Assembly (NCBI RefSeq): GCF_000406145.1
Contig: NZ_CM001976.1
Span: forward strand, 990,605-997,162
DNA length: 6,558 nt
Source of the DNA: Dickeya dadantii NCPPB 898
GTDB taxonomy: Bacteria; Pseudomonadota; Gammaproteobacteria; Enterobacterales; Enterobacteriaceae
Reading direction: 5' to 3'
Positions 2,699 to 6,558 of the stretch are shown here, in pieces (the stretch's first letter is position 1; every line of letters starts with the position of its first letter). The position numbers and the translations under genes are program-made. Under the pieces are notes generated by a model that did not search any database, was not told the DNA's origin, and saw only the letters and a list, made by a program, of their open reading frames with translations.

Positions 2699-3100
2699 TT
2701 AGATAGCAAAGGTTTCTAGCGTTTTACCACTTTCCAGCGCAGCAGCGATAGCTTTAGGCGTTCGGCCCTGACCTGTCCACGTCTGTTCGTTGCCGTTTTC
2801 ATCGGTATATTTGTATTTGGCAGGACGGGGAGTGCGTTTGGTTTTTGCTGTTTTACTGGTAACAACAGCGCCGAACAGTTCAGACGGATCAATACCATCT
2901 TCCAGCAGTTTTGCACGTAAGGCTTCAATTTTAGCCTGACGCTCTGCGTTTTGTTGCTGTGCGCTGGCTTCTTCTTCACGCCGGTCTTCAACAATGGCGG
3001 TCAGTTTTTCCAGCATTTCTTCCAGTGTTGGCAGATCGGTCTCACGAGCCTGAGCACGAAGGGTGCGAATGTTATTTAATATTTTTAGGGCTTCACTCAT
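2699..3100 (-). CDS. hns: H-NS family nucleoid-associated / xenogeneic-silencing protein (accessory paralogue), 133 aa
   Basis: [20 protein letters not shown]...LEEMLEKL is nearly identical to the H-NS/StpA N-terminal dimerisation helix. The C-terminal [27 protein letters not shown] carries the [12 protein letters not shown]-binding loop. I chose ATG at 3098-3100 (MSEALK) over 3106 because AGGA then lies about 9 nt upstream. Confidence 0.9.
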
Positions 3101-3139
3101 TATCATTTATCCTGAATGTTGAACGTCATAAACATCATA

Positions 3140-3355
3140 CTATAAACGATAAAATAAAGCAGATACTATAAATTTGCTTGATGCCTGATTATCCGTTTTT
3201 GTAAGTTTATATTTCTCGTTCTTGAACTGTTTTTTATTTTTGTTACTTGAATGGTATGTGAAAATAGAAAGCGCGATAAAAAAGATAATTAATCTGGAAA
3301 ATACGGCGACAATATTGACAGTAATATCGGGAAAATCCTGTTTTTCCCATTCCAT
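3140..3355 (-). CDS. Hypothetical 71-aa single-pass membrane protein (speculative)
   Basis: This is the internal ATG (cat at 3353-3355) of the 3140..3448 ORF. The product is MEWEKQDFPD-ITVNIVAVFSRLIIFFIALSIFTY-HSSNKNKKQFKNEKYKLTK.... It has an acidic N-terminus, one hydrophobic span of about 23 residues and a Lys-rich tail (positive-inside pattern). A 102-codon open frame in about 30% GC DNA is unusual. There is no visible Shine-Dalgarno, and the 3' end overlaps the expected hns promoter region. Confidence 0.3.
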   Translation of the reverse strand: MEWEKQDFPDITVNIVAVFSRLIIFFIALSIFTYHSSNKNKKQFKNEKYKLTKTDNQASSKFIVSALFYRL

Positions 3356-3401
3356 GCTTATGAACGGGTTCTGTTTGTTTACAATATCAGCAGGCAACTT
3401 A

Positions 3402-3620
3402 TTAAAAATCAAATAAACTTTGCAGTTGAATCTCCAACCCGGCAGCAATCACCCCAATCACTTCCAGAGTCGGATTCCTAACACCCCTCTCAATGCCGCT
3501 GATATAGGTGCGATCCAAACCGCACTTGTCGGCGAAGGCTTCCTGGGAGAGCCCTGCCTGTAAGCGAAGCGTTTTTACACGTTGCCCAAAACGGGCGGTG
3601 ATGTCTTTTGTATTTTTCAT
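3402..3620 (-). CDS. XRE-family helix-turn-helix transcriptional regulator, 72 aa
   Basis: MKNTKDITARFGQRVKTLRLQAGLSQEAFADKCGLDRTYISGIERGVRNPTLEVIGVIAAGLEIQLQSLFDF is a canonical HTH_3/Cro-CI pattern (G.R.+.LR...GLSQE.LA...G......IS.IERG...P.L..L..IA..L). I chose the start at 3620 because MK.. is the start shared with the paralogue at 3944. Confidence 0.8.
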   Translation of the reverse strand: MKNTKDITARFGQRVKTLRLQAGLSQEAFADKCGLDRTYISGIERGVRNPTLEVIGVIAAGLEIQLQSLFDF

Positions 3621-3672
3621 GCCGATAAGCATCATCCCATGTTGCTTATCAGACCACGGACGATGAGTCACA
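3621..3672 (-). promoter_or_regulatory. Conserved leader/operator segment of XRE copy 1
   Basis: A perfect inverted repeat, GATAAGCA (3624-3631)-N11-TGCTTATC (3643-3650), abuts the start codon. CCACGGAC (3654-3661) and AGTCACA (3666-3672) follow. All these elements recur in the same order upstream of copy 2. Confidence 0.4.
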
Positions 3673-3712
3673 TATGAGCTACTTCGTCGATTTAATCGAT
3701 AAGGTCCAAAAA

Positions 3713-3944
3713 TCAGGCTGGATCGCGGAATACGAAGAGTGTGGTGAGATCGGTATGCAATCCAGTCGCAAGAATATAGAGCACTTCAAGCGTTGGGTTT
3801 CTCACCCCTCGCTCAATGCCGCTGATGTAAGTTCGATCCAGCCCGCACTTTTCAGCGAAGGCTATCCTGAGATAGCCCCGCCTGCAATCTGAGCGCTTTA
3901 ACACGTTGTCCCAGCAGGGTTTTGACCGAATCGGATGTTTTCAT
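3713..3944 (-). pseudogene. XRE-family HTH regulator paralogue disrupted by a +1 nt frameshift
   Basis: ATG (cat at 3942-3944) gives MKTSDSVKTLLGQRVKALRLQAGLSQ, then DSLR*. Removing one base near 3864 (ggctAtcctg here versus ggcttcctg in copy 1) restores EAFAEKCGLDRTYISGIERGVRNPTLEVLYILATGLHTDLTTLFVFRDPA*. The span is 232 nt, which is 3n+1. It could also be a sequencing error. Confidence 0.65.
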
Positions 3945-4050
3945 GGCATAAGCATTCTGTTTTGGTGTTTATAAGTCCACGGACTATTAGTCACAATTCG
4001 GGGCTCGTGTTACGATGTGACTTATCGTCAATAATGAGGAAGGAGGGCGT
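3945..4050. promoter_or_regulatory. Divergent control region between the broken XRE gene and the Ner-like gene
   Basis: This 106-bp gap holds the copy-2 leader: ATAAGCA (3948-3954)-N11-TGTTTAT (3966-3972), CCACGGAC (3977-3984) and AGTCACA (3989-3995). It also holds the inverted partner TGTGACT (4016-4022), CTTATC (4021-4026) and a strong SD, AAGGAGG (4040-4046), for the plus-strand gene. No promoter hexamers were fixed with confidence. Confidence 0.4.
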
Positions 4051-4296
4051 ATGGAGCAACATGACTGGCATCCTGCGGATATCATTGCGGGTTTAAGGAA
4101 GAGGGGAACAACGCTGGCGGCGGTTTCGAGAGAAGCTGGGCTGGCTTCGTCTACGTTGGTAAATACGCTGGTGCGGCATTGGCCTAAAGGTGAGCGCTTG
4201 ATCGCCAACGCGTTGAATAAACGGCCTGAAGAAATCTGGCCTTCGCGGTATCACGACCTCAAGCGCACGCCGAGTGGGGAAGGGAATTCGGAGTGA
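4051..4296 (+). CDS. Ner/Nlp (SfsB)-family small DNA-binding protein, 81 aa
   Basis: DWHPADIIAGLRKRGTTLAAVSREAGLASSTLVNTLVRHWPKGERLIANALNKRPEEIWPSRYHD is collinear with E. coli Nlp/phage Mu Ner as I recall them (DWHPADIIAGLRKKGTSMAA.SR..GLSSSTLANAL.RPWPKGE.IIA.AL...P..IWPSRYHD). A strong SD lies 4 nt upstream. Confidence 0.85.
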   Translation: MEQHDWHPADIIAGLRKRGTTLAAVSREAGLASSTLVNTLVRHWPKGERLIANALNKRPEEIWPSRYHDLKRTPSGEGNSE

Positions 4297-4359
4297 GGGC
4301 GACTTCCCTGATAAGAATGACGTTATTCGTCGTGGTAAGAGTTTTTAAAGTCCGGATGA

Positions 4360-4569
4360 GGTGTTAAGGCCGATTTTCAGGGGCCTGGCTGCATTGTGAT
4401 TACCGTGCTGGATATCCACGCACTGTGGCAAGACCTGCACGCACTGAGTATCGCGCCGTTTGAAGAGTACGCCGTCACGTACTGGCTGAACCGCTTTCCG
4501 GGCGGGCCGGATGTGGCAGGGATGGAGAGCGGGCAGGGCAGTAAGTCACCGGTACTGAGCGGCAGGTAA
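4360..4569 (+). other. GC-rich coding-like remnant, or a short GTG-initiated ORF (4396-4569, 57 aa), of unknown function
   Basis: The frame is open from the TGA at 4357-4359 to the TAA at 4567-4569: GVKADFQGPGCIVITVLDIHALWQDLHALSIAPFEEYAVTYWLNRFPGGPDVAGMESGQGSKSPVLSGR. There is no ATG. The only start candidate is GTG at 4396, with a poor SD. The composition is unlike the flanking AT-rich DNA, and a hairpin follows directly. I recognise no family. Confidence 0.25.
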
Positions 4570-4570
4570 T

Positions 4571-4610
4571 AATAAGCCGTAAGGATCGTTGGGATCGCTT
4601 CCGGCTTATT
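4571..4610. terminator. Strong hairpin between convergent reading frames; candidate bidirectional intrinsic terminator
   Basis: AATAAGCCG...CGGCTTATT forms the outer 9 bp, with AAG/CTT and GATC/GATC inner pairs. That gives about 16 bp with one mismatch and one bulge, and a loop of about 5 nt. It starts 2 nt after the TAA at 4567-4569 and ends 2 nt before the immunity-gene stop (4613-4615). GTTTAAAT follows on the plus strand and AUUAUUA on the minus strand. Confidence 0.5.
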
Positions 4611-4612
4611 GT

Positions 4613-5092
4613 TTAAATAACTACATATCTTTCTTTTGCAAAACCGACAGGCCAATGACCTGAGTAATAAATCTCAGTAATCCTTTCCCATCTGTTACCA
4701 AGGGAAAAATATCTCTCTGTAATAAGTTGCCTAAACGCAAAACAAATTGCATTTCTCGCTGCAACACTAAAATCATGAGGAGAAGAGATAAAATCAGCTT
4801 TATTAAGCTCTCTTGTTGCAGAAATCACATATTTATTTATCTCTTTACGTAATTCAATGAGATCTTTTGGATTGGCTTGTTTCTTATAAAATGGATCATC
4901 TTGAGTGGGTGAAGTCGGAAGCCATTCGGTTTTTTTATAGAACCCTTTAAAATCAGTATCTGATGGCTCAATGAATACTTTTCTTACATTTTCAATGAGT
5001 ATCACATCTCCTTCATGGAGGTTGTTAACCCCCATGAGAGAGAAAAAGCTAGCAGCTTCTATTTTTTTTATCTCTTCAGTTATATCAACCAT
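4613..5092 (-). CDS. Hypothetical protein, candidate cognate immunity protein for the Rhs C-terminal toxin, 159 aa
   Basis: ATG (5090-5092) overlaps the Rhs TGA (5085-5087) in the string ATGGTTGA. AAGG lies about 9 nt upstream. The region is very AT-rich (about 27% GC in 4801-4860). No signal peptide or TM segment is present. Its position immediately 3' of a polymorphic-toxin domain is the canonical immunity position. I recognise no family. Confidence 0.75.
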
Positions 5093-6558
5093 ATGGCAGC
5101 CTTAAATCGGTTATCGTTCCAGGGGGTAAAGCTTTGCGTCCTTGTTGAATCGTTGTGCGAAGCGTTCCTCCGGCAGCATGAGGGCCGGGTATTCCGGGAA
5201 GTGAATGGTTCGGCAATGTTCCATTTGTTGGCATTAAATTCCACCATTTATTTGCACCACCACTCTCCAGCGGAATTATATGATGTGGTGTAGCTCCTTT
5301 CGGCCACGTCATCCCCATATTGGCCTCCCATTGTTTCATTAGGTAATCTTGAGTTTTCACAAACTCTTTTCTAGCTATTTGGTTTTGGAAAGCGCTACGC
5401 CTCTGGATTACTGGAAGATTGTTTCGCAGTATTTGTGCTTGTTTTGATGTAATACTTCCACCCGGTGAAGCAACTTTATTTGCATCTTTTATTATATCGT
5501 CAAGTACAGAGCACCCCGCCAACCCCAGCGGATCGATCCAAGTTGAAGGATTCGGCGCGTAAGCGTAGTTATTTTCCCCGCCCAGCACCCCTATCGGGTC
5601 TGGCGAGACATAACACCCACCGGCCGGGTCGTAGTACCGGAAGCGGTTATAGCACAGCCCGCTTTCGCTGTCACGGAGCTGCCCGGCGAAGGCCAGACCG
5701 GGGTCCGGACTTTCCGATTTTTCTGCCTGCCGCTGGCCCCACAGCGTGGCCTTCGGCGCCTGCCAGCGCAGGGTGCCGTCCTGCGCGAACAGCGCCTGCG
5801 GCGTACCGTTCTGGCTGCTGGTCACAAAATCCGTTTCCCAGTCGCCGCCGGTATGCTGGCGCTGCTGCACTACCAGCTCCCAGCCGTTGTAGACCCAGTG
5901 GCGACGCTGTATCAGTTGGCCGTGGCGGTAGTGGCGGATTTCCGCTATCTGGTCGCCGTCCCACTGATAGCGGGTCTCTTCGGCTTTCTGGTCACAGCGT
6001 TTGCCCACCCGGCGGCCGAACGGGTCGTAACGGTACAGCCAGCGCTCGCCGGTCGGGGTATCCACCACCCGTAGCTGGTTGCGGCTGTCCCAGCGGTACT
6101 GCCACACCTGCGGACGGTAGCCCGGCTGCACCACCTGTTTACGGATAAGCCGTCCGGCCCTGTCGTACTGGTAATGGGTGTCATCGTGCTGAACCAGTCG
6201 GCCAGACTGCCACTCGGTGAGGCGGCCTGCCTCCTGCGGCAGGCCGCTGCGGGTGTAGTGAAAGCGGGCGGTGGTGTCCACCGGTTTGCCCGCACCACCG
6301 CTTAACACCTCCTGCACCCGGCCGGTGGCATCCAGACGATAACCTTCGGCATCGCGGTTGTGACGCACCCCGGTCAGGTTACCGGCACCGTCGTAGCGGT
6401 ATTCCCGCGTCTGCGCTGCCAGCAGGTGGCCGTCCTGCTGTGCGCCGCTCATCTCCCGCGTCAGCCAGCCCATCACGTCGTATTCCCGCTGCTGGACAAA
6501 GCCGCTGCCGCCGCGGCGATGTGACTCGCGGCCCGCCGCGTCCTGGGTCAGGGTCAGG
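5085..6558 (-). CDS. Rhs-family YD-repeat protein, C-terminal part (5' end lies beyond the window) with a variable C-terminal toxin domain
   Basis: Repeated YD motifs are present ([34 protein letters not shown]), plus the core terminus [19 protein letters not shown]...[11 protein letters not shown]. The M at 6476 in the ORF track is really an internal GTG. Read by hand, the frame stays open to 6557 (..[32 protein letters not shown]..). Confidence 0.92.
5088..5519 (-). other. Rhs-CT: 144-aa variable toxin domain with an HNH / beta-beta-alpha-Me (colicin-DNase-like) signature
   Basis: The domain begins right after DPLGL (codons 5520-5534). The motif is [38 protein letters not shown] (5178-5291). 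It compares with colicin E9 [30 protein letters not shown]. GC drops from about 65% (5641-5700) to about 40-47% (5301-5420). Confidence 0.6.

Follow-up and report, generated by a model that had tools for sequence, protein, structure and literature searches.

The analyzed DNA of Dickeya dadantii NCPPB 898 (6,558 nt in all, hereafter the window) contains on its minus strand the 3' part of an rhs gene, an ORF that overlaps its end, and a hairpin. The distal Rhs/YD-repeat core, recognized by RHS_repeat and RHS core matches, occupies positions 5535-6558, where the gene runs off the end of the window; its frame has no in-frame stop up to position 6557. The TIGR03696 (Rhs_assc_core) match ends at residue 319 of the Rhs ORF, and a motif search identifies DPLGL (5520-5534, minus strand), the end of the hyperconserved PxxxxDPxGL motif of Rhs cores, as the boundary between core and toxin. 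The remaining 144 aa of the ORF (5088-5519, minus strand), with a pI of 10.1, form a C-terminal toxin domain (CT) assigned, by its match to the PDB chain 8cm0_A, to the Rhs2-CT type of atypical HNH DNases. The overlapping ORF (4613-5092, minus strand) has an ATG start, 159 codons, and a TAA stop. On the strength of the ORF call, homology, and an AlphaFold2 model, we assign it as an rhsI gene encoding an RhsI2-family immunity protein of 18.6 kDa, with a pI of 6.3 and a predicted cytoplasmic location. The GC content steps down from 66 to 45% at DPLGL and again to 34% in the immunity gene (34.2%, against 65.9% for the Rhs core and 52.1% for the window).

The two genes share an 8-nt overlap (ATGGTTGA, 5085-5092, minus strand) between the start codon of the immunity gene and the stop codon of rhs. 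On the minus strand, the junction reads ...GCC ATA TGG TTG ATA...; the Rhs frame ends with TAT GGT TGA (stop at 5085-5087), and the ORF begins with ATG GTT GAT at 5092. Among 12 full-length pairs of CT and immunity genes from other genera, 10 keep an 8-nt overlap of the form ATGnTTnA (in Pectobacterium, Aeromonas, Erwinia, Xenorhabdus, Photorhabdus, Zymobacter, Lonsdalea, and Pseudomonas), and in the other two pairs the genes are spaced by 0 and 1 nt. The overlap is a translational coupling arrangement. An AAGG motif (5100-5103, minus strand) lies 7 nt 5' of the immunity ATG, within the Rhs coding sequence, and equivalent TAAGG, TGAGA, or TGAGG motifs are found in other loci. Judging from its sequence, this motif may serve as a Shine-Dalgarno element.

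RNA folding predicts an interrupted hairpin (4571-4610, minus strand), lying between convergent genes, that starts 2 nt 3' of the immunity TAA. It has 15 pairs, arranged in a 9-bp outer stem and inner stems of 2 and 4 bp, with a 5-nt loop, and its folding energy of -18.9 kcal/mol (z -5.3) was not equaled by any of 200 shuffled sequences. A weak U-tract (UUAUUAUU) follows on its 3' side. The loop/stem pattern falls outside the rule of a simple consensus terminator scan, which for this reason made no call here on the minus strand. An Rfam scan of the whole window at gathering thresholds returned no RNA family, so that the hairpin is not a known RNA. The same structure is conserved at a Pectobacterium peruviense locus, where a base pair takes the place of the central mismatch seen in the window (arms GCCGGAAG...CUUACGGC in the window and GCCGGAAG...CUUCCGGC in P. 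peruviense), and the similarity between the two loci stops right after it. The hairpin is thus probably both a terminator, a function suggested by its structure and position, and the 3' end of an exchangeable CT-immunity module. The drop in GC content at DPLGL, together with the end of similarity at the hairpin, delimits an exchangeable cassette at ~4571-5519, which is a classic Rhs CT/immunity module.

Several of these features had been pointed out in the initial annotation, and all hold on measurement. The ATG does overlap the Rhs stop, and a strong hairpin directly follows the ORF. The ORF, described there as the most AT-rich coding stretch with about 27% GC in 4801-4860, has the lowest GC content among the coding regions measured in the window (34.2%, and 26.7% in 4801-4860); non-coding DNA at 3107-3401 is even more AT-rich (31% GC, with 60-nt minima of 23%). 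The maximum Kyte-Doolittle mean over 19 residues is 0.88, so that the protein lacks a transmembrane or signal-like segment, as had been stated.

The ORF encodes an RhsI2 homologue

A phmmer search of the PDB returned one strong match, "Immunity protein RhsI2" of Serratia marcescens Db10 (SMDB11_1611; chain 8cm0_B, also in entry 9T38), with an E value of 3.2e-56. The alignment pairs residues 5-159 of the query with residues 7-162 of the chain, with 84 of 156 positions identical (54%). An AlphaFold2 model built from 37 homologues has a mean pLDDT of 95.1 and a pTM of 0.91. Foldseek superimposes this predicted structure on 9t38_E, 9t38_B, and 8cm0_B with TM scores of 0.95-0.97 and an rmsd of 0.9-1.0 Å. 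Beyond RhsI2, the Foldseek search of the PDB found no structural match, the next entry having an E value of 3.3 and a TM score of 0.2. The fold, in which helices predominate beside a small antiparallel sheet, is thus unique in the PDB. The protein is a bona fide full-length RhsI2 homologue, with a fold that has no other solved relatives. [quoted passage not shown]

The initial annotation, which had taken the ORF for a candidate immunity protein coupled to an Rhs toxin with an HNH nuclease domain, is supported as to this role, with the ORF product homologous to RhsI2 and the toxin to Rhs2-CT. The novelty that it implied does not stand, the family being recognizable by the full-length match to RhsI2. 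The protein looked unrecognizable because Pfam and NCBIfam have no model for this family. Scans of the 159-aa protein against both collections returned no family at E ≤ 1, and the Pfam Imm families and SUKH/SMI1-KNR4, which had been suggested as places to look, therefore gave nothing. These families were rejected for want of a profile match; the same tool does recognize them in the neighbors of orphan homologues. Nor did any PADLOC model of anti-phage defense systems match the protein (0 families at E ≤ 1).

The lack of resemblance to the colicin immunity proteins Im7 and Im9, noted from the start, was borne out. Im7 and Im9 are four-helix proteins of ~85 aa, and in the colicin E9-Im9 pair the immunity protein neutralizes an HNH DNase of the beta-beta-alpha-Me type by binding it tightly and 1:1 at an exosite, away from the catalytic center. 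Membership in their family (Pfam Colicin_Pyocin) was rejected because the window protein is longer, at 159 aa, and its fold mixes helices and strands, with no Pfam match at E ≤ 1 and no PDB fold match to Im proteins. What the two systems have in common is an immunity gene placed directly 3' of the gene for an HNH DNase toxin. By analogy, the window protein may work somewhat like Im9, in that binding to an exosite would inhibit an HNH DNase.

Two other T6SS systems in which an immunity gene follows an Rhs protein with an HNH-type DNase were considered, namely RhsB/RhsIB of D. dadantii 3937 and TseI/TsiI of Aeromonas dhakensis; both were set apart on the basis of their descriptions. The former was rejected because Rhs2-CT and RhsB-CT are reported to share only 31% identity and RhsI2 to be unrelated to RhsIB (PMC4524185). 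What brought TseI/TsiI into question was the 80-86% identity of Aeromonas homologues to the window protein. This system shares with our locus an immunity gene whose start codon overlaps the end of the toxin gene (the tsiI start codon covers the final codon of tseI and its stop). The reason for rejecting it is that TseI is a Tox-HNH-EHHH protein with an H...HFH motif, whereas the motif here is PHH...NH...PH.

The window protein therefore adds an uncharacterized member to a family that is already known and has solved structures, as RhsI2 has been characterized experimentally since 2015 and structurally since 2024-25. It resembles the Serratia protein in its length (159 versus 162 aa), in its cytoplasmic nature, and in its place directly 3' of an Rhs2-CT-type HNH DNase, with T6SS genes upstream on a contig that carries an identical copy. 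It differs in coming from another bacterial family, and 46% of the immunity residues differ between the two pairs versus 17% of those of the toxin.

Toxin domain and T6SS context

The last 143 residues of the Rhs ORF match 8cm0_A ("Rhs-family protein," the C-terminal domain of Rhs2) with an E value of 1.3e-78 and 118 identities (83%). A weak Pfam HNH match covers residues 396-416 of the ORF. The catalytic HH is encoded at 5280-5285 on the minus strand, the second His of the PHH motif being the codon at 5280-5282. In Db10, Rhs2-CT is an atypical HNH DNase that has H1369 as its catalytic residue and H1368, H1394, and H1403 as predicted metal ligands (10.1101/2025.10.28.685041). All four are conserved in the window toxin. 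The Serratia domain also binds the elongation factor EF-Tu, which is needed to intoxicate bacterial targets, and combined mutation of E1341, R1344, A1378, and K1380 abolishes this binding (10.1101/2025.10.28.685041). The window toxin has the same residues at three of these EF-Tu contacts (E1341, A1378, and K1380). It departs from that of Serratia in having Lys instead of R1344, and in having Asn instead of H1388, the first residue of the metal-binding loop.

The genes upstream of rhs lie beyond the window, and the T6SS context was read from a related contig (L049) that encodes an identical 159-aa protein. There, the gene order is Hcp, VgrG (Phage_GPD), a DcrB/DUF1795-type protein, a PAAR-Rhs protein of 1446 aa, and the immunity gene, in keeping with a T6SS effector set of Hcp, VgrG, Eag-type chaperone, and PAAR-Rhs. 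L049 is identical to the window across 4540-4640, which covers the 3' end of the immunity gene and the hairpin. Its genes after the immunity gene correspond to the window ORFs by product length and Pfam family (an 81-aa HTH_35 protein, an 89-aa HTH_3 protein, H-NS, a 255-aa AraC protein, and a 410-aa MFS protein). The immunity gene in the window thus apparently follows a full-length, intact rhs gene and is not an orphan. A megablast search of window positions 4300-6558 against complete Escherichia coli genomes gave no match, so that this collection does not contain the module. A protein search with the 144-aa CT found only 27 short proteins, which are orphan CT fragments or carry the name "HNH endonuclease," and found no full-length CT carriers.

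Conservation and distribution of RhsI2 homologues

Searches with the 159-aa protein yielded 97 homologous clusters, 79 of which have a length of 158-159 aa. They come from Pectobacterium, Aeromonas, Erwinia, Photorhabdus, Xenorhabdus, Proteus, Providencia, Pseudomonas, Serratia, and other genera. An alignment of 37 diverse homologues contains 20 invariant columns. Against three orthologues, the dN/dS of the immunity gene is 0.10-0.12, with dS reaching ~2. The gene is under purifying selection. The 90% identity cluster of the window protein has only Dickeya and Pectobacterium members, all named "hypothetical protein," and the source names returned for the homologues are all this one or "Uncharacterized protein," save for one labeled "DUF4942." The exception is the "DUF4942 domain-containing protein" of Kosakonia sp. 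BK9b, which is 62% identical to the window protein. This label looks like an annotation error, since the window protein has no Pfam match at E ≤ 1.

We then surveyed 48 loci from species-representative genomes. In 21 of these, an Rhs2-CT-type domain ends at the start of the immunity gene; 12 are full-length pairs, and the rest have truncated or fragmentary CTs, which are either shortened orphan copies, frameshifted into two parts, or located where a contig ends. In the remaining 27, no cognate toxin domain is detectable next to the immunity gene; a dedicated CT HMM, searched unfiltered against the six-frame ORFs of all 48 loci, turned up no divergent toxin there. In 12 of the 27, which include loci from Streptococcus, Capnocytophaga, Proteus, Kosakonia, Serratia aquatilis, and Pseudomonas, the neighboring genes were scanned. 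Known immunity families were found in 11 of the 12, and two also have Rhs fragments. The families are SUKH/SMI1-KNR4, Imm5, Imm22 (DUF4284), Imm26, Imm-NTF2, Imm43 (weak), and Tli4.

On the question, raised in the initial annotation, of whether homologues always follow the same type of CT, 21 of the 48 loci have this arrangement and 27 do not. The same 27 loci bear on the objection anticipated there, that homologues found mainly away from toxin genes would speak against an immunity function. Most loci indeed lack a recognizable toxin of this type alongside, yet the sampled neighbors are immunity genes and Rhs fragments. Such company is usual for orphan immunity genes and speaks for an immunity role, not against it. 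Similar arrangements are known as polyimmunity loci and orphan immunity genes (Zhang et al. 2012, PMC3482391), which the sampled RhsI2 homologues without an adjacent toxin domain resemble in lying beside other immunity genes or Rhs fragments; unlike these, the window copy sits after an rhs gene.

RhsI2 homologues with 40-46% identity and no Rhs2-type toxin domain are present in Capnocytophaga gingivalis (L030), Streptococcus (L036, L038-L040), and Proteus (L029-L037, L041). In L029, L030, and L036, the three of these whose neighbors were scanned, and in L032, small neighbors on the same strand match SUKH, Imm26, or Imm22. Loci of the L029/L030/L036 type are orphan immunity arrays, including arrays in Gram-positive and Bacteroidota genomes without a proteobacterial T6SS. 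Overall, orphan RhsI2 copies occur in immunity arrays of Streptococcus, Capnocytophaga, Proteus, Acinetobacter, and Pseudomonas.

Three further loci have unusual toxin genes. In Yersinia nurmii (L008) and Pseudomonas sp. NPDC086251 (L023), the CT is split over two frames by a frameshift and the immunity gene is intact, which is consistent with decay of the toxin and retention of the immunity gene. In Pseudomonas sp. NBRC 111124 (L026), a Rhs-repeat ORF (3892-5031 of that locus) with no recognizable Rhs2-type C-terminal domain reads 31 nt into the RhsI2-like gene (5001-5477). This arrangement may be a recombination scar or may reflect the pairing of a different toxin with the RhsI2 family.

A predicted mode of immunity

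The Serratia pair provides the functional background. A Db10 mutant without rhsI2 is killed ~50,000-fold by the wildtype in a process that depends on Rhs2 and the T6SS, and rhsI2 supplied in trans rescues it; in E. coli, Rhs2-CT degrades plasmid DNA, and co-expression of RhsI2 blocks this degradation (PMC4524185). In vitro, purified RhsI2 abolishes the DNase activity (10.1101/2025.10.28.685041). In the crystal structures of the complex, the interface between RhsI2 and Rhs2CT covers 785 Å2 and lies away from the active site, and the metal-binding loop is disordered. The depositors suggest, without having demonstrated it, that RhsI2 may act by rearranging the loop from His1388 to Gly1407 (10.1101/2025.10.28.685041).

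Taken as a whole, the locus is best explained, with high confidence, as encoding the cognate RhsI2-family immunity protein of a T6SS PAAR-Rhs effector with an Rhs2-CT-type DNase, presumably acting by off-site inhibition. The observations behind this explanation are the homology of both partners, the predicted fold, the gene arrangement, the T6SS context, the catalytic and EF-Tu-contact residues, which are mostly kept, and purifying selection. The ORF would protect against the Rhs effector whose 3' end is window 5085-6558, presumably a PAAR-Rhs protein that is delivered by the T6SS and whose last 144 residues would act as a DNase. Translation of the immunity gene from the rhs mRNA through the ATG/stop overlap would ensure that the protein is made alongside the toxin. 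If it behaves as in the Serratia pair, the 18.6-kDa cytoplasmic protein would bind the basic toxin domain 1:1 and very tightly, on a surface away from the catalytic HNH center. The DNase would then lose its activity indirectly, probably because the immunity protein leaves the His-rich metal-binding loop (Db10 1388-1407) disordered or rearranged. The producer and its siblings would thereby be protected from toxin that is self-made or injected by siblings. Binding, neutralization, and the off-site (allosteric) mode are extended here to the window protein from its Serratia homologue. Counting against the explanation are an identity to RhsI2 of only 54%, the Asn in place of H1388 at the start of the loop, and the 27 of 48 homologues with no recognizable cognate toxin domain alongside. 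By the same analogy, the suggestion in the initial annotation of a different way of neutralizing an HNH nuclease appears sound, although the off-site binding of RhsI2 was already published.

The alternatives are all weak. The least improbable, to which we give a small chance, is that the protein keeps an RhsI2-like fold but docks in another way and confers immunity by directly occluding the DNA-binding/active-site cleft. Occlusion of the active site is the mode seen in most T6SS effector-immunity complexes (10.1101/2025.10.28.685041). The interface could also have shifted, because in these pairs the immunity protein diverges much faster than the toxin; when pairs are compared, the CT is the better conserved of the two in 98.7% of cases. 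Nevertheless, another way of docking is unlikely for a protein with 54% identity and TM scores of 0.95-0.97 to RhsI2, facing a toxin that is 83% identical to Rhs2-CT, and the homologous Serratia complex shows the off-site mode in two independent crystal forms (10.1101/2025.10.28.685041).

Even less probable is a main role, as an accessory protein or chaperone, in passing the toxin on to EF-Tu or the secretion apparatus, with protection as a side effect. The Serratia heterotrimer does have an interface of 580 Å2 with five salt bridges between RhsI2 and EF-Tu, and RhsI2 is predicted to stabilize the complex of Rhs2CT and EF-Tu. However, RhsI2 alone does not bind EF-Tu, and it is in the target cell, which has no immunity protein, that the toxin must bind EF-Tu. 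The related contig already has a dedicated chaperone gene of the DUF1795 type upstream of rhs, and the toxin-less orphan homologues in immunity arrays fit a purely defensive role.

That the ORF is a chance frame or a decayed remnant, the region being only a 3' UTR and terminator, has a negligible probability: long chance ORFs are likelier at 34% GC, family scans (Pfam, NCBIfam, and PADLOC) are empty, and the homologues have uninformative names apart from one "DUF4942," but this reading is already refuted by the conservation data (97 clusters, mostly of 158-159 aa, a dN/dS of ~0.1 with dS up to ~2, and 20 invariant columns), with a confident predicted fold that agrees with the crystal structure and an overlap kept in 10 of the 12 full pairs from other genera also standing against it. 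The reading that we retain is that of a cognate RhsI2-family immunity protein.

Divergence of toxin and immunity protein

Across the toxin-immunity pairs, the divergence of the CT and that of the immunity protein are correlated (Spearman 0.74), with a mean identity of 79% for the toxin versus 60% for the immunity protein. The toxin varies mostly in its N-terminal half, which does not include the HNH part, and the HNH half is almost invariant. The immunity protein diverges about twice as fast as the toxin, which may be constrained by the need to bind EF-Tu.

A tentative reading, which we consider possible but rather doubtful, is that the RhsI2 family constitutes a widely shared defense against one very conserved DNase toxin. 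The Dickeya/Pectobacterium variant might then cross-protect or, alternatively, be specific for its own toxin by way of the variable N-terminal half of the CT. If off-site binding lets the immunity protein drift and yet keep cross-protection, this variant might protect against the Rhs2-type toxins of other genera. Either outcome, if true, would show how an allosteric immunity interface evolves. A conserved toxin and many orphans make a natural series in which to test how specificity evolves at an interface outside the active site.

In terms of discovery, the value of the locus itself is small, as it is an orthologue of Serratia Rhs2/RhsI2, for which the function, DNase activity, structures, and off-site binding have already been described. 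It has practical value for annotation, where a family model, at present missing from Pfam and NCBIfam, would fix the naming of many genes. The module is also relevant to strain competition in planta, as it is carried by the soft-rot plant pathogens Dickeya and Pectobacterium.

Neighboring genes in the window

On the far side of the hairpin, a 57-aa ORF on the plus strand (4396-4569), with 61% GC, runs toward the immunity gene. Gene calls include it in three contigs, and it has no Pfam match. Lying just beyond the boundary of the cassette, it may be a remnant of something larger.

Further along, the module shares an island with a Ner-like HTH_35 gene (4051-4296) and an H-NS paralogue of 135 aa with both H-NS domains. 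The latter is located within 2699-3401, a span that includes the AT-rich intergenic region (3107-3401) preceding it. In the matching genome contig, this island is flanked by an integrase on one side and by IS and ParE genes on the other.

Between the H-NS and HTH_35 genes, an 82-nt direct repeat (3459-3540 and 3782-3863, within 3402-3904), with copies 80% identical and 323 nt apart, marks two minus-strand copies of an XRE-type HTH_3 gene. One copy (3402-3671) is an intact gene of 89 aa. The other (3713-3904) is only a 63-aa ORF that matches positions 8-54 of the HTH_3 model. It overlaps a 72-aa ORF on the plus strand (3674-3892) with no Pfam match, which gene callers prefer. In two related contigs (L050 and L051), the equivalent place holds two HTH_3 genes of differing lengths, and this regulator pair seems to be rearranging or decaying.
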